Shown here: positions 1,322 to 21,463 of the stretch, in pieces | How the letters are laid out: each line of letters begins with the position of its first letter | Numbering within the stretch: position 1 is the stretch's first letter | Assembly (NCBI GenBank): GCA_963812015.1 | Contig: CAWETI010000003.1 | Coordinates: 96,001 to 160,000 of the forward strand | Reading direction: 5' to 3' | Source: an uncultured delta proteobacterium | GTDB taxonomy: Bacteria > Desulfobacterota > Desulfobaccia > Desulfobaccales > 0-14-0-80-60-11 | DNA: 64,000 nt | Notes under the pieces: generated by a model | What the model saw: only the letters and a program-made list of their open reading frames with translations | Databases searched by the model: none | Told to the model about the DNA's origin: nothing | Position numbers and translations under genes: made by a program

Positions 1322-1419
1322 CTCCGATCCTCCTTAGCCTCAGATTTTGCGGGGTTTCCGATCACCCGGGAGAGGTGAAGAAAAATTCTTCCCCTCCGGG
1401 AGTTCTCCGCACGGCGGGG

Positions 1420-3525
1420 CTATTTATCCACAATTTTGGTCACCGTGACAAAATGCTCCTGCAAGGCCATGGCGCCGCCGGCCGGATCCCACCTGCCCAG
1501 GCCCCCGGACATGAAGGCTTGGTCGGCCACCCCTTTGCCCAGGGCCCGGCTCTCCACCGGGAGGGTATGCCCGAAGCCGTGGACCATGAAGACCGCGTCG
1601 GGATGGATCAGGTCGGTCACCTTGGCTTTCATCCTGCCCCGGTGGCCGTTGCTGGCGACTTCCACCTCTTCCCCGTCGCTGATCATCAATGCCTCCGCTT
1701 TTTGCCGGTTGATCCACAGGACGTTTTCCGGCATCATCTCCGCCAGGAGAATATTATTGACGGTGTGCCCCTGGGTGTGCACGGCGCAGCGCCCGAAGGT
1801 CAGGCGGAATTGCCCCGGACCGGGCGCCGCCGGGGATGCATAGGGCAGCAGGGACGGCACCCCGGCGTTTTCCCACCGGTCGTTGATGACCTCAATCTCG
1901 CCGGAAGGGGTCTTGAAGGTGAGGTCCTCCCGGGAGCGGTACTTCGGCTCCTCGGCCAACGGCACCATGCCCGTAGCCTGAAAATCCGCCATGGTGACCC
2001 CGGTGCCCTGGAGCTGATACTTCCAGATATCTTCAATGGCGTCGAAGGCCAGGGGTGCGAGGTCCAGGCGGCGCGCCAGCCCCCCGAGAATCTCCCAATC
2101 CGCCCGGGTGTCGAACGCCGGGTTCACGGCCCGCTGGCGCAGAAAAAAGTAAGGCTTGAGGCCATTTTTGCAGGCCAGGATACTCTCCCGCTCCAGGTAG
2201 GGGGACAGGGGCAGAACCACATCGGAGTACCAGGCCGTGTCGGACCAACTGAAGGTGACGGACACCAGGAGGTCCAGCCGGTCAAAGATCTTTTTCAGGG
2301 CCTCCGGGTCCGGATAAGCCATGAGAGGATCATGGCGGTAGGCGATGTAAGCCTTGACGGGATACGGGTCCTCCGAGGCGATGGCCTGGAAGGCCAGGTG
2401 CAGCAAACCCGGGCCGCGGTCAAAATGGGGATATCGCCATCCCACGCCGTCGGCACGCTTTTCCGCCAGCTTGGGGAACAGGTCCGCCAGCTTTTTGAGG
2501 CCTTTATGCCCCACGTCGCCGGGCTTATTGGCGATGGGCAGCCCACCTTTGGCCCCGATACTGCCCAGCAGGGCATTGATCAGGTAGGCGGTCCGGGATT
2601 GGTAAAAGGAGTTCCGGTACCGGGCGTTCATCCAGCCGGGGTGCCAGATGACCGCGGGGCTGGCCGCGGCCAGGTCCCGGGTGAACCGGCTGATCTCGGC
2701 GGCGTCGATCCCGGTCTCGGCTGCGGCCCACTCCGGAGTGTACGGCTTCACGAACAACGCCAATTTGTCGAGATCCTTGATGCAGCGATGGGCAAATTCT
2801 CCATCATAGAGCTTGTGGGCCAGCAGTTCGTGGATGATCGCCAGGTTCAAGGCATAATCCGTGCCGGGGCGGATAAGAAAGAATCGGTCCGCCTTGGTGG
2901 CCGAAATGTTGGCCCGGATGTCAATGACCGACAGTTTGCACCCTCTGGCCATGCCCTCGATCAGGTCGTTGACCTCTTTAACGTTAATGGCCTCAAAGAT
3001 ATTGCGGGTCTGGAGGACCACGTGCCGGGCATTTTTATAGTCATAGACCACCTCGTTACGCCCGCCCCCTAAGACGGAGAGGGCGGCGTGGTGGACATTG
3101 CGGGCGCACGCCGAATCATGGTTGCAATAATTGGGCGACCCCACCCCCCGGAGGAAGGCCTGGTGCAGATCCCGGAAGGGACCGCCCCGGTCGGAGAAGA
3201 GCACGGTTCTGGCCCCGTACTTGCCCATGGCTTCTTTGAGCCGAGCCGCGGTGTAATCCAGGGCTTCCTCCCAGCCGGCCTGGCGCCACTTGCCTTCGCC
3301 CCTGGCGCCGGTGCGGATCAGGGGATATTGGGGCCGCTCGTTATCTTCGATGAGGGCCGTGCCCGCTCCCCCCCGGGCACAGAGGGCTCCTTCCAGCCCC
3401 GCCGCATGGGGATTCCCCTGGACAAACTTGACGCGGTTGCCCGCCACTTCCACCTGGATGGGGCACCGCACAGTACACATGCCGCAGATGCTGTAGACCT
3501 GCTTGCCGGTCAATTGATTCTCCAC
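1420..3525 (-). CDS. Molybdopterin (Mo/W-bisPGD) oxidoreductase, PsrA/PhsA (thiosulfate/polysulfide reductase)-like catalytic subunit, no Tat signal
   Basis: N-terminal CGMCTVRC...LCARG 4Fe-4S motif, HDSAC putative metal-ligand Cys, SDTAWYSDVVLP, C-terminal molybdopterin-dinucleotide domain (HTQGHT, VFMVHGFG). Confidence 0.85.
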   Translation of the reverse strand: MENQLTGKQVYSICGMCTVRCPIQVEVAGNRVKFVQGNPHAAGLEGALCARGGAGTALIEDNERPQYPLIRTGARGEGKWRQAGWEEALDYTAARLKEAMGKYGARTVLFSDRGGPFRDLHQAFLRGVGSPNYCNHDSACARNVHHAALSVLGGGRNEVVYDYKNARHVVLQTRNIFEAINVKEVNDLIEGMARGCKLSVIDIRANISATKADRFFLIRPGTDYALNLAIIHELLAHKLYDGEFAHRCIKDLDKLALFVKPYTPEWAAAETGIDAAEISRFTRDLAAASPAVIWHPGWMNARYRNSFYQSRTAYLINALLGSIGAKGGLPIANKPGDVGHKGLKKLADLFPKLAEKRADGVGWRYPHFDRGPGLLHLAFQAIASEDPYPVKAYIAYRHDPLMAYPDPEALKKIFDRLDLLVSVTFSWSDTAWYSDVVLPLSPYLERESILACKNGLKPYFFLRQRAVNPAFDTRADWEILGGLARRLDLAPLAFDAIEDIWKYQLQGTGVTMADFQATGMVPLAEEPKYRSREDLTFKTPSGEIEVINDRWENAGVPSLLPYASPAAPGPGQFRLTFGRCAVHTQGHTVNNILLAEMMPENVLWINRQKAEALMISDGEEVEVASNGHRGRMKAKVTDLIHPDAVFMVHGFGHTLPVESRALGKGVADQAFMSGGLGRWDPAGGAMALQEHFVTVTKIVDK

Positions 3526-3588
3526 CTATGGTCTTAAGATAAGATCGGGATAGACGTTCTCGTTTTATCCTTAACGGTTCAGGCCAGG

Positions 3589-4446
3589 TTATTGGTCATA
3601 CTGCCGGGCATAGGCCGCATCATTATAGAGCCCCTCGCCGTACCGATCCCGGCCATAATCCTGGATGATCTTTTGGCCCTGGGGGGAGGCCACAAAGGCG
3701 ATGAACTTGCCCGCCAGCGCCGCCCCGGGGGTGGCCCCGGCCGGCTGGCAGAGGGCGTTGTAAGTATTGACCAGCATCTTATCACCCTGATACAGGATCT
3801 TGAGGTTGGGCGCCGCCTTTTTTTCCGCCACCCAGGTGCTGCTGTCCACCATGAAATAGCCCTTTTCCTGATCGGCCCGTTTTAAGGTGGCGGTCATGAA
3901 ATCCTTGGTGACGATGTACCAGTCTCCTCCGGGTTTGATGCCGGCTTCTTTCCAGATGTGCAGTTCTTTTTTGTGAGTGCCGGAATTGTCCCCCCGGGAA
4001 AAAAACTTGGCCTGGGCGTTGGCGATACGGCGGTAAGCCTCCAGGGCGCTCTTGGCTTCGGCAATCCTGGCCGGATCGCTGGCCGGGCCGACGAGAAAGA
4101 ACTCATTGGAGCCGATGAGGGTGCGGTCGGTGGCCCAGCCCTCCCGCACCGCCTGCTGCTCGGCTGCGGGGGCATGGACCATGATCATGTCCACTTTCTT
4201 ATCCTTGAGCAATTGGAGAGACTCTCCCGAACCGGCTTTAATCCACTGCAGGGTAATCCGCCCCTGCATGGCCTTATCGAACCCTGCCGCCAGGGCCTCC
4301 AGCAGTCCCAACTCCCCCGGGCTGCCGGTGGCCAGGGTAAATTTCTCCTGGCCCTGGCCATACACGCCGTGGTAAGGGGCCGCAGCCGCGGTGAACGACC
4401 CCAGGCAAAACAGCCCCACCACCATTACCAGGATTTTCTTGGTCAT
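3589..4446 (-). CDS. Second TupA-like oxyanion-binding protein (divergent)
   Basis: Signal peptide from ATG 4446 (RBS GGAGG). Shares MVHAP, LVGP..DPA, SRGDNSGTH and NTY with TupA, but has ATGSPGELGL in place of STTSTQNSGL. Confidence 0.8.
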   Translation of the reverse strand: MTKKILVMVVGLFCLGSFTAAAAPYHGVYGQGQEKFTLATGSPGELGLLEALAAGFDKAMQGRITLQWIKAGSGESLQLLKDKKVDMIMVHAPAAEQQAVREGWATDRTLIGSNEFFLVGPASDPARIAEAKSALEAYRRIANAQAKFFSRGDNSGTHKKELHIWKEAGIKPGGDWYIVTKDFMTATLKRADQEKGYFMVDSSTWVAEKKAAPNLKILYQGDKMLVNTYNALCQPAGATPGAALAGKFIAFVASPQGQKIIQDYGRDRYGEGLYNDAAYARQYDQ

Positions 4447-5073
4447 ACCCTTCCTCCAGCTAGCGGAGAATTTTACGGTTTCTCCTGTCGCTATTCTTTT
4501 CAACAAATATCCAGCGGCAAAAAAAATGGTCCTGGCCATAAACCTGCCGGGGCCTTCGCCACTCCCGGAAGGGGCCCATCAGGCGCTAAAACCGGGCCAG
4601 GGCCGTGCCCCGGCCATGGTCGATTTTTTCTAGCCATGGCCTTATTTTTTCTAAAAAATAGCCAAAAATTCACCAAAAACCAAGGTTTTTTTCTCCCGGT
4701 TGCCAAACTGAAATTATTGAGATAAATTAAAAATTAATCTCTCCAGATCCCGTCGGCATCTTCTTCTTAACACCTCCAGGACAACCATACTCTTAAACTA
4801 TAGGAAACCGGGTCATGGGGGGCCGTTGCTGCCGGCGCCTCATACGAGCCTCAAGGGCAGGGAAAAGAGGAAGATTTTGCTTGACTTTATTTCGCTTATA
4901 AGCTGATTATATTGAAATATCAAAAGATTTGGGGGGGGAGCCCCGGTCCGGCCAGCATCCTTGGGGGAGGGCAGGCCTACGCGGGCCTGGGCAACATGGA
5001 CGCGCCGCCGCAAGCATTTCTGCAGATTCAACTTTTCCCCTGAACCCCCGATCTATAACGGTAGAGGAAAATT

Positions 5074-8460: not shown

Positions 8461-8514
8461 TAGGGACGTGATGGATCACGCCCCAAAAGGGCGCACACAC
8501 GGGTGCGCCCCTAC
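8461..8514. repeat. REP-like palindrome doublet (GTAG-type)
   Basis: TAGGGACGTGATggATCACGCCCC ... GGGCGCACacacggGTGCGCCCCTAC; similar units elsewhere in the window. Confidence 0.65.
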
Positions 8515-8792
8515 GTTCAATTCCTTCTTTTTTGCATGCAACCCAGGACAAAATGGCTTGTAGTTGCGCTCGAACCGTGACACCTAAAGTCCATCACCCC
8601 CGGCTTACCTAAATTTGCTCAGCAGATTCCATCGGCAGTCCCGGCATCCTCCCGCCTGAGCCCCGCAATCTTAACAATTATTAATTTTAATATAACACAT
8701 GTTAACCAAAGTCGTTAATTGGGTAGACGCGGGAAAAGGGGGCAGAGATATATTACCAAGAAAAACAGTCGGTTTTATGTTGCAGATTAGGC

Positions 8793-8808
8793 TGGCACCT
8801 TTTTTGCT
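8793..8808 (+). promoter_or_regulatory. sigma54 (-24/-12) promoter of the tusA-hdr operon
   Basis: TGGCAC-CTTTT-TTGCT matches TGGCACN5TTGC exactly, about 75 bp before the tusA ATG, with an AT-rich region upstream. Confidence 0.85.
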
Positions 8809-8883
8809 TAACATAAAATGCAGATAAGATCAGCCGCCGGCACGGGGTGGCCGGACCATTCAAGGCTCAAAAGGAGAACCACC

Positions 8884-9138
8884 ATGTCTGACGTCGATCT
8901 GACCACGATCAAAGCCGCCAACGTAGTGGATGCCCGGGGCAGCGCCTGTCCCGGCCCTTTGCTTGAAGCCAAAAAGGGAATCGGCAAGGTGAAAGTGGGC
9001 GAAGTGCTGGAAGTGCTTTCCAATGATGCCGGCACCAAAGAAGACGTTCCCATCTGGGCCAAGAAGGTGGGACACGATTATCTCGGGTTCCTCCCCGCCG
9101 ACGGGTATGACCGGATCTTCGTGGTTCGGAAAAAGTAA
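8884..9138 (+). CDS. tusA: TusA/SirA family sulfur carrier
   Basis: VDARGSACPGP (CPxP motif), GEVLEVLSND; RBS AAGGAG. Confidence 0.88.
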   Translation: MSDVDLTTIKAANVVDARGSACPGPLLEAKKGIGKVKVGEVLEVLSNDAGTKEDVPIWAKKVGHDYLGFLPADGYDRIFVVRKK

Positions 9139-9150
9139 GCCAGAACTGCC

Positions 9151-9585
9151 ATGGCAGCCCAGCAACCTCCAGGGAAAATCTTGATTTTGGCGACGGAAAG
9201 TTGCGCCTATCCCGGGGCTGACGCCGTGGGGCAGGCGCACCAGAGTTATCCGGCCAACGCCTATATCCTCAAGGTCAGAGCCCCGGTGCTTTTCCCGGAG
9301 CAGTTTTATCTGGACTGTTTTGCCAAGGGTATTGCCGGCATCATCATCATGTCCTGCGGTGTGGAGTGTCCCTATGAAGGCGCTTATGACGGCCTGGCCA
9401 AGCGCATCGACCGGGTCTACGTCCTGATGAAAGAACGGGGCCTGGACATCCGCCGCCTCAGGCTTACCTCCATCTGCACGGTGTGCACCCGGGCCTTTAT
9501 CAAAGAAGTCAACCTGATGAACGAAGTGGTGGCGGAATTGGGCCCCCCCGGCGCCGAACGCGCGAGGGCGGCCAACCTGGCCTGA
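9151..9585 (+). CDS. mvhD: MvhD-like 2Fe-2S adaptor (hydrogenase iron-sulfur delta subunit family)
   Basis: CAYPGADAVG, SCGVECPY, SICTVC; directly upstream of hdrA. Confidence 0.8.
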   Translation: MAAQQPPGKILILATESCAYPGADAVGQAHQSYPANAYILKVRAPVLFPEQFYLDCFAKGIAGIIIMSCGVECPYEGAYDGLAKRIDRVYVLMKERGLDIRRLRLTSICTVCTRAFIKEVNLMNEVVAELGPPGAERARAANLA

Positions 9586-9640
9586 GGCCGCGCCCGGCCT
9601 AACGTGTTAGTAAGCACCGCAACCTCCCAGGAGAACAGTA

Positions 9641-10951
9641 ATGGGTCCACAACGTGTGGTTCAAGTTGAGGCGCTGGTCATCGGCGGCGGGATTGCCGGA
9701 TTGGAGGCGGCCCTGAACCTGGCCGAGCAAGATTTTGCCGTCGCCGTGGTGGAAAAGGATGCCTCCATCGGGGGCAAGATGATCCGGCTCTCCAAAGTCT
9801 TCCCCACCCTGGATTGCGCCAGCTGCATTACCACCCCGAAAATGGCGGCCGCGGCCCATCATCCCAATATTACCCTGTTTACCTACTGCGATCTCCACTC
9901 CCTGGAGCGGCAAGGGGACACCCTGGTGGCCGCGATCCGCCAAAAACCCCGGTATGTGGACGAAGGCAAGTGCATCGGCTGCCGGCAGTGCGAGTATGCC
10001 TGCCCAGTTCACGTCCCCGACGCCGACCAGGGGGGCTTTCTGGCCCGCAAGGCCATTTATATCCCTTTTTCCAATGCCATTCCGCCCATCGCCCTCCTGG
10101 ACGTGGAGCATTGCATGCTCTGCGGCCAATGCGAGAGGGTCTGTCCAACCCAAGCCGTCAATTATTTTCAGGAGCCGGAGGATTTTTTCATCACCGCCAA
10201 AACCGCCATCGTGGCCACCGGTTTTGAGCTGACCCCCCTTGCGAACAAGGTCCAGTACGGCCAGGGCAAGATCCCCAACGTGTTGACGGCCCTCCAGATG
10301 GAACGTCACCTGGCCCCCCATGGGCCCTATAACCGGGTGCTCAGGCCCTCTGACGGCAAGGAGCCGGATTCCGTGGCCTTCGTGCAGTGCGCCGGTTCCC
10401 GGGACCAGAGCCTGGGGGTGGCCTACTGTTCCCGGGTGTGCTGCATGTATGCCATCAAACAGGCCATGCTCCTGTCCGGGTCTTTGCCCCTGGCGGATAT
10501 CACCATCTACTACCTGGACATCCGGGCCTTTGGCAAAGGGTACGAGCAGTTCTTTCAGAACGCCCAGGCCATGGGCATTGCTTTCGTGAAGGGGAAAGTG
10601 GCTTTCCTCGACCCCGGCCCCGACGGCTCGGTGCTGCTGCATTACGAATCTCAGGAGGCCGACGGCGGCGTGAGTGTAGCCGAACATGATCTGGTGGTGC
10701 TGTCCCTGGGAATGTTACCGGGCTGGCAGCCGGCAAGTGTTTGCGCCCTGGGGACCGGGCCGGACCACTTCATTAAAACCGTGAAGCCCAAAATCGCCCC
10801 CACCTTAACCGACCTGGAAGGGGTGTTTGTGGCCGGCGCGGCGGCAGGGCCTAAAGATATCGTCGACAGCATTGTGGAAGCCGGGGCCGCGGCGATGGAA
10901 GCTTCCCGCTACCTGACCGGGGCAGGCCCGACCAAACGGGCGGTGGCGTGA
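9641..10951 (+). CDS. hdrA: Heterodisulfide reductase subunit A-like flavoprotein (short form)
   Basis: GGGIAG FAD motif, FPTLDCASC, inserted 2x[4Fe-4S] domain, CAGSR and CSRVCCMYAIK. Confidence 0.88.
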   Translation: MGPQRVVQVEALVIGGGIAGLEAALNLAEQDFAVAVVEKDASIGGKMIRLSKVFPTLDCASCITTPKMAAAAHHPNITLFTYCDLHSLERQGDTLVAAIRQKPRYVDEGKCIGCRQCEYACPVHVPDADQGGFLARKAIYIPFSNAIPPIALLDVEHCMLCGQCERVCPTQAVNYFQEPEDFFITAKTAIVATGFELTPLANKVQYGQGKIPNVLTALQMERHLAPHGPYNRVLRPSDGKEPDSVAFVQCAGSRDQSLGVAYCSRVCCMYAIKQAMLLSGSLPLADITIYYLDIRAFGKGYEQFFQNAQAMGIAFVKGKVAFLDPGPDGSVLLHYESQEADGGVSVAEHDLVVLSLGMLPGWQPASVCALGTGPDHFIKTVKPKIAPTLTDLEGVFVAGAAAGPKDIVDSIVEAGAAAMEASRYLTGAGPTKRAVA

Positions 10952-10973
10952 AGCCATGAGGGGAGATGCAGGC

Positions 10974-12914
10974 ATGGCGGCAGAAAAGCACCACTCCGCA
11001 ACCGCTCCGATTGCCAAAGTCGGGGTTTACGTCTGTTATTGCGGCGGCAACATCGGTGACCAGGTGGACGTGGAAAAAGTTTGTGAGCGGGTCCGAACCA
11101 TTCCCGGCGTGGTCGTGGCCCGATCCAACCAGTTCATGTGCTCCGATCCCGGCCAGGAACTGATTATGGAGGACCTCAAAAGCGGTCGGGTGGATCGGGT
11201 GGTGGTGGCGTCCTGCTCCCCCAGCCTGCATGAGGACACCTTCCGCCATACTCTGGCCCGGGCCGGCGCCAATCCCTATGTGTATGAGCATGCCAATCTG
11301 CGGGAACAGGTGAGTTGGGTGCATCACGGCGCGGCAGCCACCGACAAAGCCACCCGACTGGTGGCGGCGGCGGTGGGCAAGGCCAGAATGCTCCAGCCCC
11401 TGGAGCCGATCCGGGTGGAGGCCCGGCGGCACGCCACCGTTATCGGGGGAGGCGTGGCCGGCCTCAGAAATGCTCTGGATCTGGCGGAGCGCGGCATCCC
11501 GGTGGCTCTCCTGGAAAAAACCCCGTTTTTGGGAGGGCAAGCCGCCCAACTGGACCGGCTCGCCCCCTACGGCGCACGCGCCGCCGACCTGGTGAGCGAG
11601 CTTACCGCCGCGGTCCTGGGTCATCCCGACATCAGCGTGTATCATTGCGCCCAGGTGGAGGCTTTCGAGGGCTACATCGGCAATTTCACCCTCAGTGTGG
11701 TCCGCACCCCGCCCACCGCCCCGGCCGAGGCGGAAAGCCTGGCAAAGGTCAGCCTCTCCGGGAAAGGCCCGGGGGAGTTCATCCCCTTTGTGGGGGTGCT
11801 CCCGGCAGCCATTCCCCAAACCACCGAGGAGTTCGCCCTCAACACCGGCGTCATTGTCCTGGCCACCGGCTTCAAGACCTACCGGCCCCGCCGGGGTGAA
11901 TACGGTTTCGGGGACTTTCCGGAAGTGGTCACCCTGCCGGACCTCATCAGACTACTGGCCGAAGATGCCAAGCCCGGCGAGACCCTGGTTATTAACGGCC
12001 GCCCCATCAAACAGGTGGCGATGATCCACTGCGTCGGGAGCCGCCAGATTCCCGGCATCCACGAAGAGAATGAAGGCGGCTACCTGAACGAATATTGCTC
12101 CCGGGTCTGTTGCAGCGCCACGCTCCAGGCCGCCAATCTTATCCGGGAGACCTATCCCCGGACCAGGATATTCGACTTTTACCGGGATATCAGGACGTAT
12201 GGCCGGGGGCAAGAGGAGCTTTATACCCGGGCCGCCCAAAACAAGGTGCTGTTCTTCCGCTTTGAGGCTGATGCGCCTCCCCAGGTCAGGTCCACGGCCC
12301 AGGCCGCCGACCATCCCCTGGTGGTCAGCGTCCAAGACTCCTTGACCTTCGGCGAGGCAGTGGACGTGCCGGTGGATCTGGTGGTGCTGGCGGTGGGGAT
12401 GGAACCCAATGAGATCACCGACCTGGTGGGGCTGATGAAACTGCCGGTGGGGGCGGACCGTTTCCTCCAGGAAGTCCACCCGAAGTTGAGGCCGGTGGAG
12501 ATGTCCGTGGCCGGGATTTTGCTGGCCGGCACCTGTCAGGCCCCCTTTGACATCGGGGAGTCCTGTGCCGCCGCGTCCGGCGCCGCGGTCAAAGCCGCGG
12601 CGATCTTGACCCGGGGTCATGTGGAACTGGACCCCTTTGTGGCGGAAGTTGATCTGGACAGGTGCCGGGGGACCGGCGCTTGTGTTGCGGCCTGCCTGTC
12701 GGAAGGGGCTTTGTCCCTGGCCGAAATTGACGTGGACGGCCAAAAGGTGCAACGGGCCCAGGTCAATCCGGCCCTCTGTCTGGGTTGCGGCGCCTGTGTG
12801 GCGGTCTGTCCCGAAAATGCCATCAATATCAAAGGCTGGACCCTGAAGCAGTACGAGGCCATGGTGGACATGATCGTCTCGGATGCCTATTTCGGCGAAG
12901 CTGAGGCGGGATAA
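10974..12914 (+). CDS. hdrA: Heterodisulfide reductase subunit A-like flavoprotein (long form)
   Basis: N-terminal VYVCYCGGN/FMCS/SCSP domain, GGGVAG, CVGSR...CSRVCC, HPKLRPVE, C-terminal ferredoxin; start at 10974 (RBS GGGAG) or 10956. Confidence 0.88.
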   Translation: MAAEKHHSATAPIAKVGVYVCYCGGNIGDQVDVEKVCERVRTIPGVVVARSNQFMCSDPGQELIMEDLKSGRVDRVVVASCSPSLHEDTFRHTLARAGANPYVYEHANLREQVSWVHHGAAATDKATRLVAAAVGKARMLQPLEPIRVEARRHATVIGGGVAGLRNALDLAERGIPVALLEKTPFLGGQAAQLDRLAPYGARAADLVSELTAAVLGHPDISVYHCAQVEAFEGYIGNFTLSVVRTPPTAPAEAESLAKVSLSGKGPGEFIPFVGVLPAAIPQTTEEFALNTGVIVLATGFKTYRPRRGEYGFGDFPEVVTLPDLIRLLAEDAKPGETLVINGRPIKQVAMIHCVGSRQIPGIHEENEGGYLNEYCSRVCCSATLQAANLIRETYPRTRIFDFYRDIRTYGRGQEELYTRAAQNKVLFFRFEADAPPQVRSTAQAADHPLVVSVQDSLTFGEAVDVPVDLVVLAVGMEPNEITDLVGLMKLPVGADRFLQEVHPKLRPVEMSVAGILLAGTCQAPFDIGESCAAASGAAVKAAAILTRGHVELDPFVAEVDLDRCRGTGACVAACLSEGALSLAEIDVDGQKVQRAQVNPALCLGCGACVAVCPENAINIKGWTLKQYEAMVDMIVSDAYFGEAEAG

Positions 12915-12982
12915 GGCCATGGCCCGGGAAAACCGTTCCCGGGTCAAAATTAAGAAACTGACGGACCCCTAACCCTTGAGGT

Positions 12983-13321
12983 TTGATGATGCGTGACGCC
13001 CCGACTGATCAAGAGGATAGAAAAGCGGCGCTGAAGCAGCTCCGGGAGGCTCGCCGGGAAACCATCGCCGCAGCCACCCGCCGGGTTAAGGAGCAGAAAA
13101 AGGCCATCAGGGCCATCAAAGCCCAGTTATCCGGAGGCGATCTGACGGTGCCCGAACTGGCCGCGGCCACCGGCATGCCGATGTCCGAGGTGATGTGGTT
13201 CGTGGCCTCTCTAAAAAAATATGGAGCAGTCCTGGAGGGTCCCAAGGACGGGAGTTACTTTCGGTATCAGCTGGCCGATAGCGCCTCGGAAGAGGTGGAG
13301 CCGGCCAGCCCCGAATCGTGA
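12983..13321 (+). CDS. Coiled-coil plus winged-helix small protein
   Basis: Helical N-terminus followed by LTVPELAAATGMPMSEVMWFVASLKKYG wHTH; ATG alternatives at 12986/12989. Confidence 0.65.
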   Translation: MMMRDAPTDQEDRKAALKQLREARRETIAAATRRVKEQKKAIRAIKAQLSGGDLTVPELAAATGMPMSEVMWFVASLKKYGAVLEGPKDGSYFRYQLADSASEEVEPASPES

Positions 13322-13369
13322 CCTGGCCCGCCGCCGGCAACCCTGATCCGCCGATACCGAGGAGGCAGC

Positions 13370-13681
13370 ATGGCTTCCGTTGATCCACAATTTGCCGAAG
13401 AACTTGAGTTGTATGGGGTCGATACGGCTCTGGACTGCTTCAACTGCGGCACCTGTGCCGCGATCTGTCCCCTGCAATACGAGCATTTCCCCAGGAAAAT
13501 CATTCGCTACGTTCAACTGGGGGCCCGGGAGAAACTTCTCCAAAATGCCGAGGAACTCTGGCGCTGCCTGCATTGCGGGCTCTGCACCCAGACCTGTCCC
13601 CGGCAAGCCAATCCCGGCGAGCTGCTTTTGGGATTGCGCCGCTTTATGGTGGCCACTTGGAGGAGGACTGAAGATGTATAA
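13370..13681 (+). CDS. hdrC: HdrC-like 4Fe-4S dicluster protein
   Basis: CFNCGTCAAICP and LWRCLHCGLCTQTCP; RBS GGAGG. Confidence 0.85.
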   Translation: MASVDPQFAEELELYGVDTALDCFNCGTCAAICPLQYEHFPRKIIRYVQLGAREKLLQNAEELWRCLHCGLCTQTCPRQANPGELLLGLRRFMVATWRRTEDV

Positions 13682-14615
13682 CCCCCGGCACATCATCGAC
13701 CTGATTGCCATCAACGTCCGGAAAACCGGCAATCCTTTCGGGGTCCCGGCCGCCATGATTAACCAATGGTGGAAAGGCGTGCCCCAGGGGACCCGGCGGG
13801 AGGGCGACGCCCTGCTGTTTACCGGGCTGATGTACCAATCCATCCCTTATATTGAAAACACCACCCGCTATCTGGAGCGCTTTGAAGGGACGCCCTGGGC
13901 CGGTTATCTGAAATTCAGCAAGTATACCCGTTATGTGCCCAATTGGCTGGTGGGCTGGGCCTTTGTCTGCCTGACCTCCAGGGCCGAGCGCCGGAAATAT
14001 AACGGCATCGTGCAGGGTATTTACCGAATTTTGAAAAAGGCCCAGGTGGATTTCTTCTATCGGCCGGAACTCGATGGTTACAGCGGCATATTGCTCTACG
14101 ACCTGGGGGATCATCAGGGCTTTATCCGGCATGCCCGGGCAATGGCCAAGAACTTGAAGCTCCATGGGGTCAAGAAGATCATCACGGTGGACCCCCACAC
14201 CACCTATGCCTTGAAGGTGCTCTATCCCAAGTATGCGGGGGCAAGCTTTGAAGTGCAGACCTACTTTGAGTTAATTGACTTCAAGGCCGGCAACGGCCAT
14301 CCCCCCGTGGCGGTCCATGACCCGTGTTTCTACGGCCGCTATCTCGATTTGTCCGAAGTGCCCCTCAAGGTGCTCCATAACCTGGGGGTGGGCTGTGTGG
14401 AAGTTCGCCGGAGCGGCAATTTTACCCATTGCTGCGGCGGTCCGGCCGAGTCGGTGTCGCCGGCCCTCACCCGGGAGATCCTTGGGCACCGGGTCGAAGA
14501 ACTCAAGGCGACTGGGGCGCCCGTGGTGACTATGTGCCCTATTTGCCTGGCCAATCTCACCAAAGCCGGGGTCGAGGTGGAAGATCTTTCCAGTCTGATC
14601 GCCCGCTGCGCCTAA
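13674..14615 (+). CDS. HdrB/GlcF-type CCG-domain Fe-S protein (one intact CCG domain)
   Basis: TGNPFG, HDPCFYGR, CCGG, MCPICLANL; ATG 13674 after GGAGG overlaps the hdrC stop. Confidence 0.8.
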   Translation: MYNPRHIIDLIAINVRKTGNPFGVPAAMINQWWKGVPQGTRREGDALLFTGLMYQSIPYIENTTRYLERFEGTPWAGYLKFSKYTRYVPNWLVGWAFVCLTSRAERRKYNGIVQGIYRILKKAQVDFFYRPELDGYSGILLYDLGDHQGFIRHARAMAKNLKLHGVKKIITVDPHTTYALKVLYPKYAGASFEVQTYFELIDFKAGNGHPPVAVHDPCFYGRYLDLSEVPLKVLHNLGVGCVEVRRSGNFTHCCGGPAESVSPALTREILGHRVEELKATGAPVVTMCPICLANLTKAGVEVEDLSSLIARCA

Positions 14616-14722
14616 GCAGGTAAGTTATAAGGGGCCTCAACCGGCGAGAGCCCCCGGCTCCCTGAGGTTGCAGGCTTGATAGCTAAAGGCGCCACATCAT
14701 TTACCCTAAAAAGGAGAACAAC

Positions 14723-15091
14723 ATGGCAGACACGGAAAAAATCGTTTTGATTCTGACCCACGGCCCCGAAGACCCGGACCGGGCCACCATCCCCTTTGCT
14801 ATGGCCAATGCGGCCCTGGCTATGGAGGTGGAAGTAGTGGTAGCCCTGCAAGGCTCCGCAGTGCTGCTGGCCCAAAAGGGGAGCGCGGAACACATTTTTG
14901 CCCCCAATTTCCCGCCCCTGAAAGAATTGATCGAGAGTTTTTTCTCTCAAGGCGGCCAACTTTTAGTCTGCGTTCCCTGCCTCAAGGCCCGTAAGCTCGA
15001 GGAGTCGGACCTTATTGCGGGAGCCCAGGCCACCGCCGCGGGCCGGCTGATTAAAGAGATCTTGGAAGCCAAATCGACCCTGAACTACTAA
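14723..15091 (+). CDS. DsrE family sulfurtransferase/peroxiredoxin-like protein
   Basis: LTHGPEDPDRATIPF, LVCVPC; RBS AAGGAG. Confidence 0.8.
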   Translation: MADTEKIVLILTHGPEDPDRATIPFAMANAALAMEVEVVVALQGSAVLLAQKGSAEHIFAPNFPPLKELIESFFSQGGQLLVCVPCLKARKLEESDLIAGAQATAAGRLIKEILEAKSTLNY

Positions 15092-15122
15092 TGCCAGGTC
15101 GCCAACCAAAGACGATTTGCTT

Positions 15123-15182
15123 GTCGGGGCGGACCCATGGGTCCGCCCTGGATTGAGGGCGCACAGGCGGGTGCGCCCCTAC
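15123..15182. repeat. REP-like palindrome doublet
   Basis: GTCGGGGCGGACCCATGGGTCCGCCC ... GGGCGCACaggcggGTGCGCCCCTAC. Confidence 0.7.
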
Positions 15183-15251
15183 AATTCCACATTTTTCGAT
15201 TGCGACTTGGGATAAGAGGCGGCCAGGACGTAATCCGCTGGATCGCACCAG

Positions 15252-15437: not shown

Positions 15438-16832
15438 TCAAACGGCGATTAACTTCTTCACGTCGATGCCGTATTTTTTCATGCGGTGCCACACGGTGAT
15501 CCGACTCACCCCGAGGAGGACCGCGGCCCTGGATTGATTGCCGCCGGTCTGGCGGAGAGCCGCGACCAGGGCCGTCTTTTCATCCGTTCCGGCGCTCCCC
15601 CGGCCCTCCTCCGGGATCTTTTGGAAGGATGCCGGGACGTTTACCGTGGGCGGGAGGTGTTCGGGATGGATGAGGCCTTTTTCCGCCAGGACGAAAGCAT
15701 ATTCCAGGACCCCTTTCAGTTCCCGGACATTGCCCGGCCAGGGGTGGTCCATGATGAGCCGCATGGCGCCGGGGGTTAAACCGGTTATGGGCTTGCCGCT
15801 CTTCTCCCGGAGCCGTCGGATAAAATGATTCACCAGCAGCGGCACGTCCTCCATGCGGTCCCGCAAGGGGGGCAGATGGATGGGGATGGCATTGATGCGG
15901 AAAAACAAGTCCTCCCGGAACTTCCCCCGGGACACCAGCGACTCCAGGTCTTGGTTGGTGGCCGAGATGATGCGCACATCCACCCTGATGGACCGCACAT
16001 CTCCCACCCGCTCGAACTGTTTGGTTTCCAAAACCCTGAGCAGTTTGACCTGGGTGGACAGGGGAATATCGCCGATTTCATCCAGAAAGATATCCCCGCG
16101 GTTCGCCGCCTCAAATCTTCCCTGGCGATGGCTGTAGGCCCCGGTAAAGGCCCCCTTGACGTGGCCGAAAAGCTCGCTCTCCAACAAGGCTTCATTCAGA
16201 GCCGCACAATTGAACTGGATGAAAGGTCCATCCCGCCGCTTGCCCAATTCATGGATGGCCAAAGCCACCAATTCTTTCCCGGTGCCGCTTTCGCCATAGA
16301 TGATTATGGGAGCGTCACTCTGGGCGGCTTTTTCGGTTAGTTCAAAAACTCGCCGCATAACGGCGGATTTTCCCACGATGCCATAAAATTCGTCCTCGTC
16401 CTCCAACAGCCGGGAGAGCTGCTGGATTTTCTGGTCCCGCTTGGTAATTTCCGAGATATCCGTGAGGGTTTCCACCGCCCCTAACACCTCGCCGGCCGCG
16501 TTCCGTAAAATGGAGGCGTTTTTCAAGACGTGCACATACGAGCCATCTTTGCGGATTAGCAGGCAAGGTTTCCGGGTGGCGGAACCCAAATCGAACAGGT
16601 CGCACCAGTGTCCCTTCCCCTCGGCCCGGGCGATTTCACAGGCATCGCAATGAATAAAACCGCAGGAGGCGCCGATGAGTTCGTCCCGGCTGTAGCCGAT
16701 CATTTCCTCGAAAGCCCGGTTGACCATCATGATGGTGCCGTCCGGGGCCACCACCACCAGACCATCATTCATGGTATTGATGATCTCTCGGCAATACCGA
16801 TACATCCCTTGTTCATCACATCCCTGGTTCAT
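15438..16832 (-). CDS. PAS-domain sigma54-dependent transcriptional activator (Fis-HTH)
   Basis: PAS with Cys cluster, GESGTGKE, GAFTGA, LFFRIN, WPGNVREL, C-terminal HTH. Confidence 0.93.
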   Translation of the reverse strand: MNQGCDEQGMYRYCREIINTMNDGLVVVAPDGTIMMVNRAFEEMIGYSRDELIGASCGFIHCDACEIARAEGKGHWCDLFDLGSATRKPCLLIRKDGSYVHVLKNASILRNAAGEVLGAVETLTDISEITKRDQKIQQLSRLLEDEDEFYGIVGKSAVMRRVFELTEKAAQSDAPIIIYGESGTGKELVALAIHELGKRRDGPFIQFNCAALNEALLESELFGHVKGAFTGAYSHRQGRFEAANRGDIFLDEIGDIPLSTQVKLLRVLETKQFERVGDVRSIRVDVRIISATNQDLESLVSRGKFREDLFFRINAIPIHLPPLRDRMEDVPLLVNHFIRRLREKSGKPITGLTPGAMRLIMDHPWPGNVRELKGVLEYAFVLAEKGLIHPEHLPPTVNVPASFQKIPEEGRGSAGTDEKTALVAALRQTGGNQSRAAVLLGVSRITVWHRMKKYGIDVKKLIAV

Positions 16833-17301: not shown

Positions 17302-18534
17302 CTAAGCCAACATCTCCGCGGCCTGGCGCATGAGCGCGGCGATGGCCAGCTTTTGGGGGCAGGCCCGCTCAGCCTGGGAGTAGTCCACCTCGGCCAACCG
17401 CTGCCGAATCGCCTCGGGCAGTCCGGCGAAGGTCAGTTTGGCCAGCTCCGGCTCGCCATAGTACCGATGGTACATGAGGCAGCGCATGACCTCGTTCACG
17501 GGCACGGCCCCGCCCACGGCCTCCTGGCAAAGGTTGCCGCAGCCGGCGCAGTAGTCGGCCTGGGTCTCCAGGGCATACTGGCGCAGGGATTCGAACTCTT
17601 CCCGGGCCAGTTTGGCCTGGTCCCGGGCCGCAGCCACGTTGGCCATGAGGATGGTCAAGTTGGGCATCTGGGAGCAGAGGCTGGCGATTTGGGGGTTTTC
17701 CCAGACCACCTTGAGCTTGGCCTGCTTGTCCGTGAAGCCCCGTTTCAGGAAGCGCTCGGCCATCTCCAGCTTGGCCTCGCTGGCGATCTTGGGCGCGCCC
17801 GGCCCGCCGGCCTGGCTCTTCATGGCCACCAACCCAACCCCGGCCTTCTCGCAAGCGTTCATAGCTTCTTTCAACTTGGGGTCCTGCATGACCCGGAAGT
17901 TGTAGCTGAACATCACTGCGTCGATCCAGCCCAGCTTGGCCGCGCCTGAGAGGCAATCCGCCATGTTGGTGTGGGTGCTGAAGCCGAAGAATTTGAACTT
18001 GCCCGCCTTCTTCATCTCCGCGCCCCAATCCTTGATGGCCGGGGTCATTTGGTCGATGCCGGTGAGGCTGTGGATGAAGAACAGGTCCACGTGGTCCGTC
18101 TGCAGCCTTTTCAGACACTTATCCAGGCGTTCGGTGAGGTTGCCGCCCTTGGCCTGGAGCTTGGTGACCAGGAAGATTTCCTTGCGGGCTTCGGGGTTGC
18201 GGGCGAAGAAGCGGCCATAGCCATCTTCGCTCAGGCCGTTGCCGTAAGACTCGGCCATGTCCCAGTAGGTGACCCCCCATTTCATCGCCTGCTTGAGGAG
18301 CAGTTGGTTGTTGATGGTGTCGAACATGCCCCCCAGGCAGAGGCTGGACACCTCCACCCCGGTCTTGCCCAGCTTCCGTTTGGGCGTGGTCCCGGCCGGG
18401 GCGGGGCCGGCCGGCTGCTCCGGCGCGGCGATGGCCCCGGTGGCGCCGGCCCCCGCCACCGCGAGGCTGGCCAGTCCGACGGTCTTGACGAAATCCCTGC
18501 GGGTAACGCCTGTATCGTTGCTCTTCCGGCTCAT
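17302..18534 (-). CDS. Aldo/keto reductase with Tat signal and C-terminal Fe-S motif
   Basis: TRRDFVK Tat motif; RKLGKTG, DMAESY, VTK, LFFIH; CAGCGNLC...RC...ACP. Confidence 0.85.
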   Translation of the reverse strand: MSRKSNDTGVTRRDFVKTVGLASLAVAGAGATGAIAAPEQPAGPAPAGTTPKRKLGKTGVEVSSLCLGGMFDTINNQLLLKQAMKWGVTYWDMAESYGNGLSEDGYGRFFARNPEARKEIFLVTKLQAKGGNLTERLDKCLKRLQTDHVDLFFIHSLTGIDQMTPAIKDWGAEMKKAGKFKFFGFSTHTNMADCLSGAAKLGWIDAVMFSYNFRVMQDPKLKEAMNACEKAGVGLVAMKSQAGGPGAPKIASEAKLEMAERFLKRGFTDKQAKLKVVWENPQIASLCSQMPNLTILMANVAAARDQAKLAREEFESLRQYALETQADYCAGCGNLCQEAVGGAVPVNEVMRCLMYHRYYGEPELAKLTFAGLPEAIRQRLAEVDYSQAERACPQKLAIAALMRQAAEMLA

Positions 18535-18689
18535 GGTAGTTACCTCATAGTCTGATGATTAATGGATGGTTTAATACAAATTGAACGCGTTTATAAGTCC
18601 TAATTTCTTCAAGATGGATTGAGGGGAATTATGAAGGCTCAGGTGATCCTCCCGAATAGCCCCCCACACCCAGGGCCCGCTTCACTGCT

Positions 18690-20423
18690 CTAAATGAGCA
18701 TGCGCCCCGGACCTGAACGGGATTCGTTTTCACTGTATACCCGAATGGCCCGCAGGCCCGATACCGGGCATTCATGCTCGCACATGCCGCAGCCGATGCA
18801 CCTGGCAGGGTCCATGAAAGGACGCTGCAATCTCACCACAATATCCACCCGTACTCCGGCTGCCGGGGGGCTGTCTCCGGCCAGGGGGCGCTCTATGGTC
18901 AGCCGGGTTCCCGCCAAGCCGGTAATGCGCCTAAGCGCGGCCTCGGGCTGCCCGGTGGCCCGCAGGTAGTAGTCGCCGCTGGCCAGGTTCACCGCGGTGG
19001 GGATAGCCGCATCCAGGATCACCCCTGGTCCCTGAACCTTGGCCGGTACGGCCTGGCCGTCCCGGATGGTTTCAAATGTCGTCCGGGTGAAGATGGCCTT
19101 GGGGCTCACGGGGCACAATTCATGACAGACCAGACAGGGCCGGTCCATGGCCCAGGGCAGGCAGCGGGTGCGGTCCACGAAGGCGGTGCCCATGCGGATC
19201 GGCCCCTGGGCGGCGAACTCGCCGGCGCCTTGCTTTTCCTCGAGGCTTAAGGGGCGGATGGCCGCGGTGGGGCAGACCTGGCCGCAGGCGATGCAGTTGG
19301 GCTGGCAGCCGCTGCGGCCGATGCGGTAGTTGACCGCCGGGGTCCACAAGCCCTGCACCCCGGCTTCGAGCACGGCGGGTTGGATGATGTTGCCGGGGCA
19401 GATACGCATGCATTGGCCGCAACGGATGCAGCGGGCCAGGAAACGCTCCTCATCCAGGGCCCCGGGTGGACGGATGAGGTTGGGGTTACGGTTGGTCCCG
19501 GCCAGTCCGCCGACTTCCCACATGGATACCAGGAGCAGCCCCGACCCGGCCACGATAAACCCGCGCCTGGACAAGTCCGGCAACCCCACCTCACCGGCCG
19601 CCGAGGGTTTGTCGGCAAAGGTGATCCGGCCGGCGGGGCAACGGTGCAGGCAGTTCATGCACAGCACGCACTCGCCGCCAATGATGGTTCCCGAGGGACG
19701 GCAGGCGCCTTCGCAGTATTCCTCACAGATGCGGCAATCGCCGCAGCGATCCGAAGTCTTGCCGATGCGCCAGGGGGTGAAACGGCTCAAGAGGCCGAAG
19801 AGGGCTCCCAGCGGGCAGATGAACCGGCAGAAGAACCGGGGCAAGACCAGGTTCAAGCCCACCACTCCCAGGAACACGACCCCGAACAGCCAGGTCGAGG
19901 CGTAAAAGCGCGGCGCGTCGCTGAGTAGGCCCAGGCGGTTATCGGCCAAGGGGGCCAGGGCCAGGTTGACGCTGCGGTGCAGCAGGGGCAGCGGGTCAAA
20001 AATCCCAGTCTGCACCGACCCCATGAGAGCCAGGGCCAGCAGAAAGGCCAGGAGATAGTATTTTAAGGCCTGGGCCCGGCGGTGGCGATTGGCCTCCACC
20101 CTGCCACCCATGCCTTGACCCCGCCGCCCCAGCCAACCGGTGAATTGGTTGATCGTGCCCAGGGGGCAGGCGAAGCCGCAGAAAAACCGGCCTAGGAACA
20201 GGGTCAGCCCGATGGTGACCAGGGCCCAGGCCAGGGGTGCAGAGAAGGTGTGGGTGGACAAAACCGTGCTGATCGCGGTGAGGGGGTCCAGTTCCAAAAT
20301 CCAGTTGATGGGCCAACCGCGCAACTGCCACCAAGCCGCCCCGAGGGTGGCCGTGATGCAAAACCACAGGAAAACCGCCAGGAAGAAGATTTGGCTGATG
20401 CGACGGACGGTGACGATGCGCAT
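18690..20423 (-). CDS. Membrane polyferredoxin (NapH/MauN-like fused to NapG/MauM-like)
   Basis: GRFFCGFACPLG, RFFCRFICPLG, internal SRRGFI, RPPGA..CIRCGQC, several CxxCxxCxxxCP motifs. Confidence 0.85.
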   Translation of the reverse strand: MRIVTVRRISQIFFLAVFLWFCITATLGAAWWQLRGWPINWILELDPLTAISTVLSTHTFSAPLAWALVTIGLTLFLGRFFCGFACPLGTINQFTGWLGRRGQGMGGRVEANRHRRAQALKYYLLAFLLALALMGSVQTGIFDPLPLLHRSVNLALAPLADNRLGLLSDAPRFYASTWLFGVVFLGVVGLNLVLPRFFCRFICPLGALFGLLSRFTPWRIGKTSDRCGDCRICEEYCEGACRPSGTIIGGECVLCMNCLHRCPAGRITFADKPSAAGEVGLPDLSRRGFIVAGSGLLLVSMWEVGGLAGTNRNPNLIRPPGALDEERFLARCIRCGQCMRICPGNIIQPAVLEAGVQGLWTPAVNYRIGRSGCQPNCIACGQVCPTAAIRPLSLEEKQGAGEFAAQGPIRMGTAFVDRTRCLPWAMDRPCLVCHELCPVSPKAIFTRTTFETIRDGQAVPAKVQGPGVILDAAIPTAVNLASGDYYLRATGQPEAALRRITGLAGTRLTIERPLAGDSPPAAGVRVDIVVRLQRPFMDPARCIGCGMCEHECPVSGLRAIRVYSENESRSGPGRMLI

Positions 20424-20440
20424 GGTGTGTTGTCCGAGAA

Positions 20441-21463
20441 TTAAGCGCTAGTATTAAGGAGCAGCGGGTTGAGCCGGCGATAGTCGGCGATGCCCGCGCC
20501 GGCTTTCTCAGCCATGAGAATATAGGGCACGTCGGCCAGGGTACGCCCCAAAAGTTCCACGCCCACGGCGTCAGCAGCCACGGGGTCGGTGGAGACGACC
20601 AGGGTGCCGGTGTCCTTCAGGTCGGACAGGGACCCGCCGGTGGGGCCGTTGGTCATCATGCTCACCGTGCCGTCCAGGACGCACAGGGTGGGCTTGAGCA
20701 ACTGCGACAGCTCGGTGATGATGCCGTTGATGTCCTGGTGGAAGACGTTGCGCCGCCCCCCCAGGAAGCCGTAGAAATTCTTGAGGGTCATGGAGGCCCC
20801 GGCGCGCTGGTGGTCTTTGACTGGACTCACCACGATGACCTTGGTCACTCCCGGGAAGACCCCGGCCATGACCGGCCAGTTTTCCAGGAGCTTGCCCCCG
20901 GGGAGGCTGACGGGAGCAAAGAGGGTGGCCCGGGGCGTTATGAGCCTGGCCCCGGACTTCAGAGCGGCATTGGCCAGTCCGGTGATCTCGAAGCAGCTAT
21001 CGGGATTGTTGATGGGGTTGTCCGTTACCAGCACCTGGGCCGCTCCGGCTTTGAAACAGAGGCTGGCCACCGCGGTGAGCACCTCCGGGTTCGTGGTGGC
21101 CCCCAGGGAAGGCGGAGTGGCGAACGCGGCGTTGACCTTGATGAGCACCCGGTCGCCCTTGCCGATGAAGGACTCCATGCCTCCCAGGGCTTGAATCCCC
21201 CGCTGGACCATCACCGCCCGGTCCGTGCCCCGGACGATGGCCATTTTCGCCTGTCCCGGGGTCAGGGTGCGCAGGCTATAATCCCCCAACCCGGTCAGCG
21301 CCTTCTGGCCCTCGGAAGGGCCCGGGCCTTTCGGGTCATACAGGGCCAGGCCAAGGCCGCAGGCCCCCAGGGCCACGGCCGAGGCGTACCCCAGCCGCTT
21401 GAGAAAATCCCGGCGGTTCAACTCGCCGGCTATGATCTGTTCTGCCTCACTGGGTTTCTTCAC
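20441..21463 (-). CDS. DUF362 domain protein with Tat motif
   Basis: NRRDFLK; GDRVLIKVN, ATTNPE, MTLKN, DPVAAD. Confidence 0.82.
   Translation of the reverse strand: MKKPSEAEQIIAGELNRRDFLKRLGYASAVALGACGLGLALYDPKGPGPSEGQKALTGLGDYSLRTLTPGQAKMAIVRGTDRAVMVQRGIQALGGMESFIGKGDRVLIKVNAAFATPPSLGATTNPEVLTAVASLCFKAGAAQVLVTDNPINNPDSCFEITGLANAALKSGARLITPRATLFAPVSLPGGKLLENWPVMAGVFPGVTKVIVVSPVKDHQRAGASMTLKNFYGFLGGRRNVFHQDINGIITELSQLLKPTLCVLDGTVSMMTNGPTGGSLSDLKDTGTLVVSTDPVAADAVGVELLGRTLADVPYILMAEKAGAGIADYRRLNPLLLNTSA

Follow-up and report, generated by a model that had tools for sequence, protein, structure and literature searches.

A tusA-Linked Hdr/Qmo-Type Operon with an Exchangeable Terminal Module from an Uncultured Desulfobaccales Bacterium

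The stretch of DNA analysed here, referred to as the window, comprises 64,000 nucleotides from an uncultured delta proteobacterium of the Desulfobaccales (assembly GCA_963812015.1, contig CAWETI010000003.1, positions 96,001 to 160,000 of the forward strand). Eight open reading frames, all on the plus strand at 8884-15091, were found to form an operon in the order tusA, mvhD*, hdrA1, hdrA2, wHTH, hdrC, the CCG gene, and dsrE, with intergenic gaps of 12, 55, 22, 74, 48, -8, and 107 bp. The domains of the encoded proteins were assigned with Pfam and NCBIfam profiles, which returned TusA, FlpD/MvhD, two HdrA-type flavoproteins, a weak helix-turn-helix (HTH) match, a 2x[4Fe-4S] protein, a single CCG domain, and DsrE. 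A preliminary description of this DNA had placed a sigma54 promoter ahead of eight co-oriented genes and had seen two sulfur-carrier genes on either side of an Hdr/MvhD redox core. Both observations were reproduced: the promoter match lies at 8793-8807, and the flanking carriers are TusA, with a CPGP motif, and DsrE, with a CVPC motif. The convergent activator gene in the last line below had been overlooked.

8793..8807, plus strand: sigma54 -24/-12 promoter element, TGGCAC-N5-TTGC (motif match and conservation upstream of tusA)
8884..9138, plus strand: TusA-family sulfur carrier, 84 aa, CPGP motif with Cys22 (PF01206, 1.6e-19)
9151..9585, plus strand: MvhD*, an MvhD fold with rewired cysteines, namely a new invariant C109xxC112 and variable C18/C69/C73 (PF02662)
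9641..10951, plus strand: HdrA1, 436 aa, flavin adenine dinucleotide (FAD) core plus inserted 2x[4Fe-4S] domain, Glu/Lys pair E221/K273 kept
10974..12914, plus strand: HdrA2, about 646 aa (longest open reading frame from 10956), QmoB-like architecture minus MvhD
12989..13321, plus strand: coiled-coil and winged-helix (wHTH) protein, about 110 aa (weak HTH match, 0.002)
13370..13681, plus strand: 2x[4Fe-4S] "hdrC" protein, 103 aa (NF038018, 1.1e-22)
13674..14615, plus strand: CCG protein, 313 aa, five-Cys site C218, C253, C254, C288, C291; N-terminal site dead (D173-P-H175)
14723..15091, plus strand: DsrE-family protein, 122 aa, C83xxC86, CVPC (PF02635, 2e-20)
15438..16832, minus strand: PAS-AAA-HTH sigma54 activator, 464 aa, convergent with the operon, likely the cognate regulator

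The distribution of the operon was determined from two of its subunits. Using the CCG protein as the query, 38 named loci were recovered, of which 31 have an Hdr context and 7, all archaeal, do not; five of these seven adjoin genes for LUD-domain proteins. The 31 Hdr-context loci come from Desulfobacterota, Chloroflexota, Acidobacteriota, Desulfurellales, Archaeoglobaceae, and Nitrososphaeria, and the closest named relatives of the window operon are metagenome-assembled genomes (MAGs) of the Desulfobaccales. Because a strong CCG match occurs in only 12 of 17 genomes of the same genus, the operon is accessory. The Desulfobacterota were surveyed with an even sample of 401 genomes of the phylum. 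The CCG family was found in 28 of them, and the 27 loci fetched gave the full gene order in 22 cases, a partial order in 2, and a position beside GlcD-type genes in 3. With MvhD* as the query, the family was found to be common, with matches in 43 of the 401 Desulfobacterota genomes and in 22 of the 96 Archaeoglobi genomes searched (23 places). This signature subunit is also present in the cultured species Desulfacinum infernum, D. hydrothermale, and Desulfosoma caldarium, and the system is therefore testable now.

In these loci tusA was found immediately 5' of mvhD* in 42 of 42 Desulfobacterota and 22 of 23 Archaeoglobi cases, whatever terminal module follows. The wHTH gene is present in 39/42 and 20/23 loci, respectively, every miss lying at a contig end, and a DsrE-like gene falls inside the fetched stretch in 40/42 and 17/23. 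The fixed core of the family is tusA-mvhD*-hdrA1-hdrA2-wHTH. As the preliminary description requires, tusA and dsrE are conserved beside the hdr genes of other genomes, across phyla. The wHTH protein, a member of the core, is probably a subunit or adaptor and not a regulator. Its neighbours in the Atlas are unnamed or ArsR-like clusters.

The genes that follow the core are exchanged. The terminal module of the 43 Desulfobacterota carriers was determined to be HdrC plus CCG in 24, a QmoC-like membrane protein in 12, and an HdrD-like fusion in 5, with 2 cut off; at the 23 archaeal places the corresponding numbers are 2, 14 (two of them incomplete), 3, and 4. When these labels were placed on a tree of the core (TusA, MvhD*, and HdrA2; a quick tree of 82 rows without bootstrap, five loci with missing genes having been dropped), at least 11 changes were required where 2 is the minimum possible, and changes were found even inside the family of the window itself. 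For the QmoC-like proteins of the sister operons, 4-6 membrane helices are predicted, and three His residues are conserved among them. Such a QmoC-type membrane heme b subunit is absent from the window and is present in the 12/43 and 14/23 sister loci counted above. The HdrC protein of the window shares 40-56% identity with the soluble domain of 24 of the operon QmoC-like proteins, versus 38% with the QmoC of its own genome, and is the counterpart of the soluble N-terminal domain of the QmoC-like subunit of the family; it has no membrane helix. The earlier label "hdrC" needs correction, the best score being to the N-terminus of QmoC (1e-22) versus 2e-13 to HdrC. In the Qmo complex, QmoC is the subunit that faces the quinone (PMC3333476, PMC13490349). 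Modules that replace one another so frequently most likely have a common function, and the HdrC plus CCG end is most likely an electron outlet and not a disulfide reductase. Given this natural swap, a CCG gene adjoining hdrA is no sure sign of a heterodisulfide reductase, which bears on the annotation of orphan "Hdr" and "Qmo" genes.

The two flavoproteins divide one set of HdrA modules between them, in place of a full-length homodimeric HdrA. HdrA1 consists of the FAD core and an inserted ferredoxin domain, and HdrA2 of an N-terminal Fe-S domain, an FAD core without the Glu/Lys pair, and a C-terminal ferredoxin domain. A Glu/Lys pair beside the flavin is linked to electron bifurcation. The pair, as an acid (E or D) plus Lys, is kept in 26 of 26 HdrA1 rows, and the Lys in 1 of 26 HdrA2 rows. 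HdrA1 was found in three size forms. The largest, of about 900 aa, contains an NfnB/GltD-like NAD(P)H module within its ferredoxin domain; this module is eroded in forms of about 700-750 aa and missing from the 436-aa form. In a quick tree without bootstrap (108 rows, the operon being represented by the window and a thinned set of 26 loci), HdrA1 and HdrA2 each form their own clade (Shimodaira-Hasegawa-like approximate likelihood ratio test, 99), separate from the QmoA/QmoB rows of canonical type and from the HdrL rows. HdrA1 scores 298-387 bits against the methanogen HdrA chains 5ODC, 8RVU, and 7BKB and 120 bits against 6TJR.

The predicted model of MvhD* matches MvhD chains (Foldseek TM 0.83-0.84, E of about 1e-12), and in the Atlas it is linked to FlpD only. 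Its cysteines, however, are rewired. Canonical MvhD binds a [2Fe-2S] cluster with ligands that we take to be Cys 13/42/67/72; the window protein has Thr15 and Ala44 at canonical positions 13 and 42 and hence not the canonical four cysteines, while C18, C44, C69, and C73 come and go among the family rows. The new C109xxC112 motif was found in 90 of 90 family rows and in 0 of 17 aligned canonical MvhD rows. No hydrogenase or formate dehydrogenase (Fdh) gene follows mvhD* in the operon, where the fixed neighbour is tusA. The CxxC is consistent with a redox-active dithiol and equally with a relocated cluster, and the motif is a better candidate for a sulfur port than the CCG protein.

Cys22 of TusA is invariant (22/22). 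The operon tusA is one of two PF01206 matches in the genome, the other being YedF. In DsrE, 10 of 34 rows have an in-frame TGA in place of the Cys83 codon, and one of them has TGA at both cysteines. A conserved hairpin lies 3' of this codon, with a third-position conservation of 0.96 versus 0.83 upstream among nine distinct close kin, so that the TGA at Cys83 in these relatives is a probable selenocysteine. Selenocysteine usually marks a catalytic thiol.

Several other small genes were seen around the operons. L017:8058-8411 encodes a DsrE in which both CxxC cysteines are TGA, and L018:10416-10763 a DsrE of a second type whose second cysteine is TGA; both are probable selenoproteins. A TusA-like protein without the CPxP cysteine stands beside the operon or the activator gene in many loci (L007:1155-1439, L049:3244-3480, L002:9403-9666). 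A Cys-rich protein of about 235 aa with no Pfam match is encoded 3' of dsrE at L004:8448-9200, L013:8444-9148, L056:9627-10331, L125:3551-4255, and other loci; it occurs as three tandem copies in L004 and is absent from the window. Beside 10 of the 23 Archaeoglobi operons there is a divergent pair of small genes (L151:1667-2374, L158:1547-2212, and others) that resemble DsrE/DsrF type II by eye and have no Pfam match at 1e-4.

Of the two HdrB clusters, the CCG protein retains one. Only its C-terminal five-Cys site is intact, with the five cysteines invariant in 39 of 39 rows; the N-terminal motif reads TGL/YSG/DPHT, and the two five-Cys motifs of methanogen HdrB are therefore not both present. 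The predicted model (predicted local distance difference test, 87) is best matched by EtfD (Z 24.8, root-mean-square deviation (rmsd) 2.6, 257 aligned residues), and the second match is HdrB (Z 18.8, rmsd 2.4, 214 aligned). His175 is invariant and aligns with His583 of EtfD, which completes the C-terminal cluster of that protein and renders it non-catalytic; FadF and DgcB also do without the cysteines of the first site (PMC13083937). The histidine cap by itself was rejected as proof that the CCG protein is non-catalytic because DsrK shares the same His. DsrK uses a single cluster of this kind to reduce a trisulfide bound to protein, and the Cys of the T/GECGH motif of DsrK, HmcF, and TmcB is described as "probably essential" (PMC10861901). 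At this position the CCG protein has Asp173 in 39 of 39 rows, and Cys occurs in 0 of 147 family representatives. The DsrK encoded elsewhere in the genome carries GECGH, and the HdrD-like alternatives carry Ser at the position equivalent to Asp173. The preliminary description had assigned to the CCG protein an HdrB-like catalytic site for the persulfide of TusA/DsrE. With the second cluster and the DsrK-type Cys missing, and with the module interchangeable with QmoC, this assignment is probably wrong. Residues 76-100 form a basic amphipathic and then hydrophobic insert (moment 0.67, net charge +2.4), a pattern as expected for an in-plane membrane anchor.

We conclude from the comparative sequence data that the operon is a real and widespread Hdr/Qmo-type variant tied to TusA, in which every part comes from a known family. 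The gene content, conservation, residue patterns, and module swaps described above lead us to favour, tentatively and at somewhat less than even confidence, a Qmo-like and possibly bifurcating HdrA-type flavin/Fe-S complex, attached to the membrane, that would couple TusA-bound sulfur to quinone and to ferredoxin or NADP(H). That the products assemble into one complex, that TusA docks on it, that quinone is used, and that electrons are bifurcated we infer. The mapping of this complex onto three ports follows the wiring of HdrA as generally understood. The sulfur port would be the MvhD position, which normally docks a hydrogenase or formate dehydrogenase and would here be re-tooled, such that TusA, loaded or unloaded by DsrE, could exchange sulfane sulfur and electrons at or near C109xxC112 of MvhD*. 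At the high-potential port, electrons would pass through HdrC and the one, putatively His-capped cluster of the CCG protein to a carrier in the membrane. This carrier would probably be menaquinone, and QmoC would play the corresponding part in the sister operons. The low-potential port would be formed by the ferredoxin domain inserted in HdrA1, whose partner would be ferredoxin in this operon and NADP(H) in relatives. The flavin of HdrA1 would couple the ports through bifurcation or confurcation, the flavin of HdrA2 being degenerate, and the PAS-sigma54 activator would turn the operon on.

Sulfane sulfur lies at about -270 mV, NADPH at about -370 mV, and ferredoxin at about -500 mV. By our estimate, quinol plus ferredoxin would be roughly balanced with persulfide reduction, and the NADP(H) versions of HdrA1 would favour the oxidative direction. 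Menaquinone, with a potential of -75 mV (PMC3333476), cannot in its reduced form alone reduce sulfane sulfur at the potential given above. This gap could be bridged by a complex in which a sulfur carrier meets both the quinone pool and a low-potential carrier. The mechanisms for cytoplasmic reduction and disproportionation of zero-valent sulfur are incomplete, and no proposed marker is unambiguous (PMC12998232).

Several points weigh against the Qmo-like sulfur-coupling complex. MvhD* always has 3-5 cysteines, and its CxxC may just ligate a relocated Fe-S cluster. DsrK is catalytic and yet has His at the position of CCG His175. No match to YeeE/YedE (PF04143) was found in this genome (G000, 99.9% complete). 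Five CCG-type carriers (G062 and G064-G067, completeness not given) have no PF02621, MqnC, or MenB match over the cut-off, although G251 and G415, both with dsrA and aprA, likewise go undetected by these markers. Finally, TusA of E. coli also serves Fe-S, molybdenum cofactor (Moco), and tRNA pathways (PMC11094781).

A more specific version of the proposal, in which the complex is an electron-bifurcating sulfane-sulfur oxidoreductase and MvhD, otherwise a docking subunit with an Fe-S cluster, has become a dithiol port for TusA, is possible but doubtful. If it were true, menaquinol plus ferredoxin could reduce protein-bound sulfur, and the oxidation of sulfide to persulfide could drive the reduction of NADP+ or ferredoxin. 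A missing cytoplasmic step of sulfur reduction and disproportionation would then be supplied independently of Dsr and Apr.

TusA and DsrE may instead be maturation or sensing factors, acting in Fe-S assembly or persulfide signalling, with the complex serving as a general ferredoxin/NADP(H)-quinone module whose MvhD* would carry a relocated Fe-S cluster and dock an input enzyme encoded elsewhere. We consider this unlikely, although it accommodates the MvhD fold and the 3-5 cysteines that MvhD* retains, the existence of carriers without dsrA, aprA, or dsrC, and the many further HdrA/MvhD, Moco, and Fdh-type genes in the genome. The many anabolic roles of TusA proteins (PMC11094781) also favour it. 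On the other side, the other HdrA/MvhD loci of the genome are without tusA, and the repeated recruitment of several DsrE types, of a second TusA-like protein, and of probable selenocysteine versions fits a sulfur flux better than a one-off maturation step.

It is improbable that the CCG subunit is catalytic after all, with the persulfide of TusA/DsrE being cleaved or formed at the single noncubane cluster and the missing Cys given in trans by DsrE (as Cys or Sec) or TusA. The invariance of the five cluster cysteines, the precedent of DsrK, whose lone cluster of this type reduces a protein-bound trisulfide (PMC10861901), the position of dsrE 3' of the CCG gene in most loci, and the carriers without quinone markers speak for such a site. 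Against it stand the Asp at the position of the "probably essential" Cys, with no Cys among the 147 representatives, and the occurrence of dsrE also 3' of QmoC-type ends, which have no CCG protein. Moreover, the same CCG family serves LUD (5/7 non-Hdr loci) and GlcD-type dehydrogenase loci (3/27), where no sulfur carriers were detected.

That the operon encodes, for use in particular circumstances, either a DsrC reductase or a second Qmo for adenosine 5'-phosphosulfate reductase is very improbable: the architecture is Qmo-like, 57 of 64 carriers have dsrA and 56 of 72 have aprA, the HdrA2 of a relative is labelled "QmoB" in a published table (PMC10504309), and dsrC adjoins one archaeal operon, but the subunits lie outside the canonical QmoA/B clade, no apr gene stands beside the operon in the 39 loci screened, and complete or nearly complete carriers have no match to dsrA, aprA, or dsrC. 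The latter carriers are all QmoC-type and comprise G093 and G114 (both 100% complete), together with G249 (100%) and G323 (99%), where the search covered all but 72 kb of each genome. Five CCG-type MAGs of unstated completeness likewise gave no dsrA or aprA match. AprAB and DsrC are therefore not obligatory partners. The genome of the window carries dsrA, sat-aprBA-qmoABC, and dsrMKJOP outside the operon, as well as menaquinone genes.

The statement in the preliminary description that no mvhAG, Fdh, Flx, Qmo, or Apr gene is present is correct for mvhAG, fdh, flx, and apr in the operon, but "no Qmo" is misleading given the Qmo-like architecture. Like QmoABC, the operon encodes an unequal pair of HdrA-type subunits together with an MvhD domain and an Fe-S domain of the QmoC type, and sister operons can carry a full QmoC-like membrane subunit. 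Unlike QmoABC, it has no linkage to aprAB, its own HdrA clades, a free MvhD with a new CxxC, and an obligatory tusA and wHTH; the window has a CCG protein instead of a heme domain, and the aprBA of the genome has its own qmoABC. With the HdrABC-MvhAGD and Fdh-Hdr complexes of methanogens it shares the Glu/Lys pair of HdrA1 and the MvhD fold, but it differs from them by the split asymmetric HdrA pair, the absence of hydrogenase or Fdh and of a two-cluster HdrB, and the partial loss of the canonical MvhD cysteines. The earlier view that the system is neither sHdr nor HdrABC-Flx still stands: the operon has no LbpA, a different gene order, and no flx among its eight genes. No lipoate-binding gene was found in the operon, and the five GCV_H matches in the genome include none in the window. 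TusA and DsrE always accompany the sHdr-LbpA system of sulfur oxidizers (PMC11094781), but the operon has neither its C1-B1-A-H-C2-B2 nor its type II order, its HdrA1 is far nearer to methanogen HdrA than to 6TJR, and its hosts are anaerobes, mostly with dsrA.

DsrK, HmcF, and TmcB resemble the terminal module in having a ferredoxin domain, a single C-terminal CCG cluster, and a His at the equivalent position, but their T/GECGH cysteine is Asp in the operon protein. Among relay proteins of the EtfD/FadF/DgcB and LutA-GlcF types, EtfD gives the best structural match, and relatives 42-47% identical to the CCG protein are found in LUD/GlcD loci; unlike the relay proteins, the CCG protein would be attached to an HdrA pair and not to an electron transfer flavoprotein or a lactate/glycolate dehydrogenase, and it has no transmembrane helix. 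The YTD cluster and DsrEFH type II also combine TusA with DsrE-type carriers in sulfate reducers and disproportionators (PMC13293266), but the present genome has no YeeE/YedE match and the operon no DsrF or DsrH gene. Archaeal dsrEFH type II genes occur beside "QmoAB" genes (PMC13293266), and these loci may be operons of the tusA-linked family.

In the literature passages searched, no paper was found to describe the unit tusA-mvhD*-hdrA-hdrA-wHTH, its new CxxC, or the exchange between QmoC and CCG; the possibly relevant PMC5947623 ("second qmo", Syntrophobacter fumaroxidans proteome) lies outside that scope, and S. fumaroxidans is absent among the 120 MvhD* homologues listed. The MvhD* of Desulfacinum hydrothermale (WP_084058080.1) bears the next number after WP_084058078.1-QmoB and WP_084058079.1-HdrA of Supplementary Table 1 of Neukirchen et al. 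2023 (PMC10504309). From these adjacent accession numbers the HdrA pair appears to have been catalogued already as an orphan "QmoB+HdrA".

The sigma54 element at 8793-8807 is the sole match in the 64-kb window, yet 17 of 100 shuffles yield one somewhere, and the match taken alone is weak evidence. A looser motif within 500 bp upstream of tusA was found in 31 of 49 loci of the subgroup of the window, three of these matches being on the opposite strand, and in none of the 28 loci of other subgroups. The genome background is 0.023 per 500 bp, and this conservation supports the promoter. A PAS-sigma54 activator gene is adjacent in 39 of the 49 subgroup loci versus 0 of the 28 others. Cys57/62/65/77/90 of its PAS domain are invariant in 36 of 36 rows, making the domain a candidate new Fe-S or persulfide sensor. 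OrpR of Desulfovibrio vulgaris is likewise a PAS-domain sigma54 activator with conserved cysteines, which bind an Fe-S cluster (PMC8359166) but are spaced differently, at 52/61/65.

Scans for sigma70 promoters and terminators were at chance level (5 versus 3.3 and 12 versus 11.1, respectively). Palindromes at 8489-8510 and near 15155-15180 were rejected as activator sites; they lie in copies of a dispersed repeat that flank the operon (8489-8515 and about 15120-15185) and whose 9-mer core occurs 180 times in the genome. Twenty-four RNA runs contained small shares (0.05-0.13) of the operon, and four were aligned at 85% likeness. These were rejected as evidence of expression or of a single transcript, since contigs of relatives span the operon but also both flanks. 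Two RNA contigs ending at 8819, the predicted +1, were not counted owing to their unaligned remainders.

Some rearranged and neighbouring loci were also recorded. At L157:3039-7645 the hdrA2-wHTH-qmoC half is inverted relative to tusA-mvhD*-hdrA1, with dsrC upstream, and at L128:7387-9327 about 2.2 kb of no recognisable family, possibly an insertion, splits the operon between wHTH and qmoC. The archaeal loci L119:387-6614 and L120:2991-10313 combine a split HdrA pair with a canonical MvhD and an MvhG/MvhA hydrogenase, one of them also with a QmoC-like gene, and represent a separate hydrogenase-fed Qmo-like module. A 443-aa Fe-S/CCG protein is encoded with an identical score on two small contigs of the genome (G000:C4:4528-5859 and C5:6100-7431), through either duplication or assembly redundancy. 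Elsewhere in the window, the minus strand carries a molybdopterin oxidoreductase gene (701 aa) between two genes for tungstate/molybdate-binding proteins (500-4539) and a run of genes for a twin-arginine aldo/keto reductase, a polyferredoxin membrane protein, DUF362, and DUF6599 (17302-22476).

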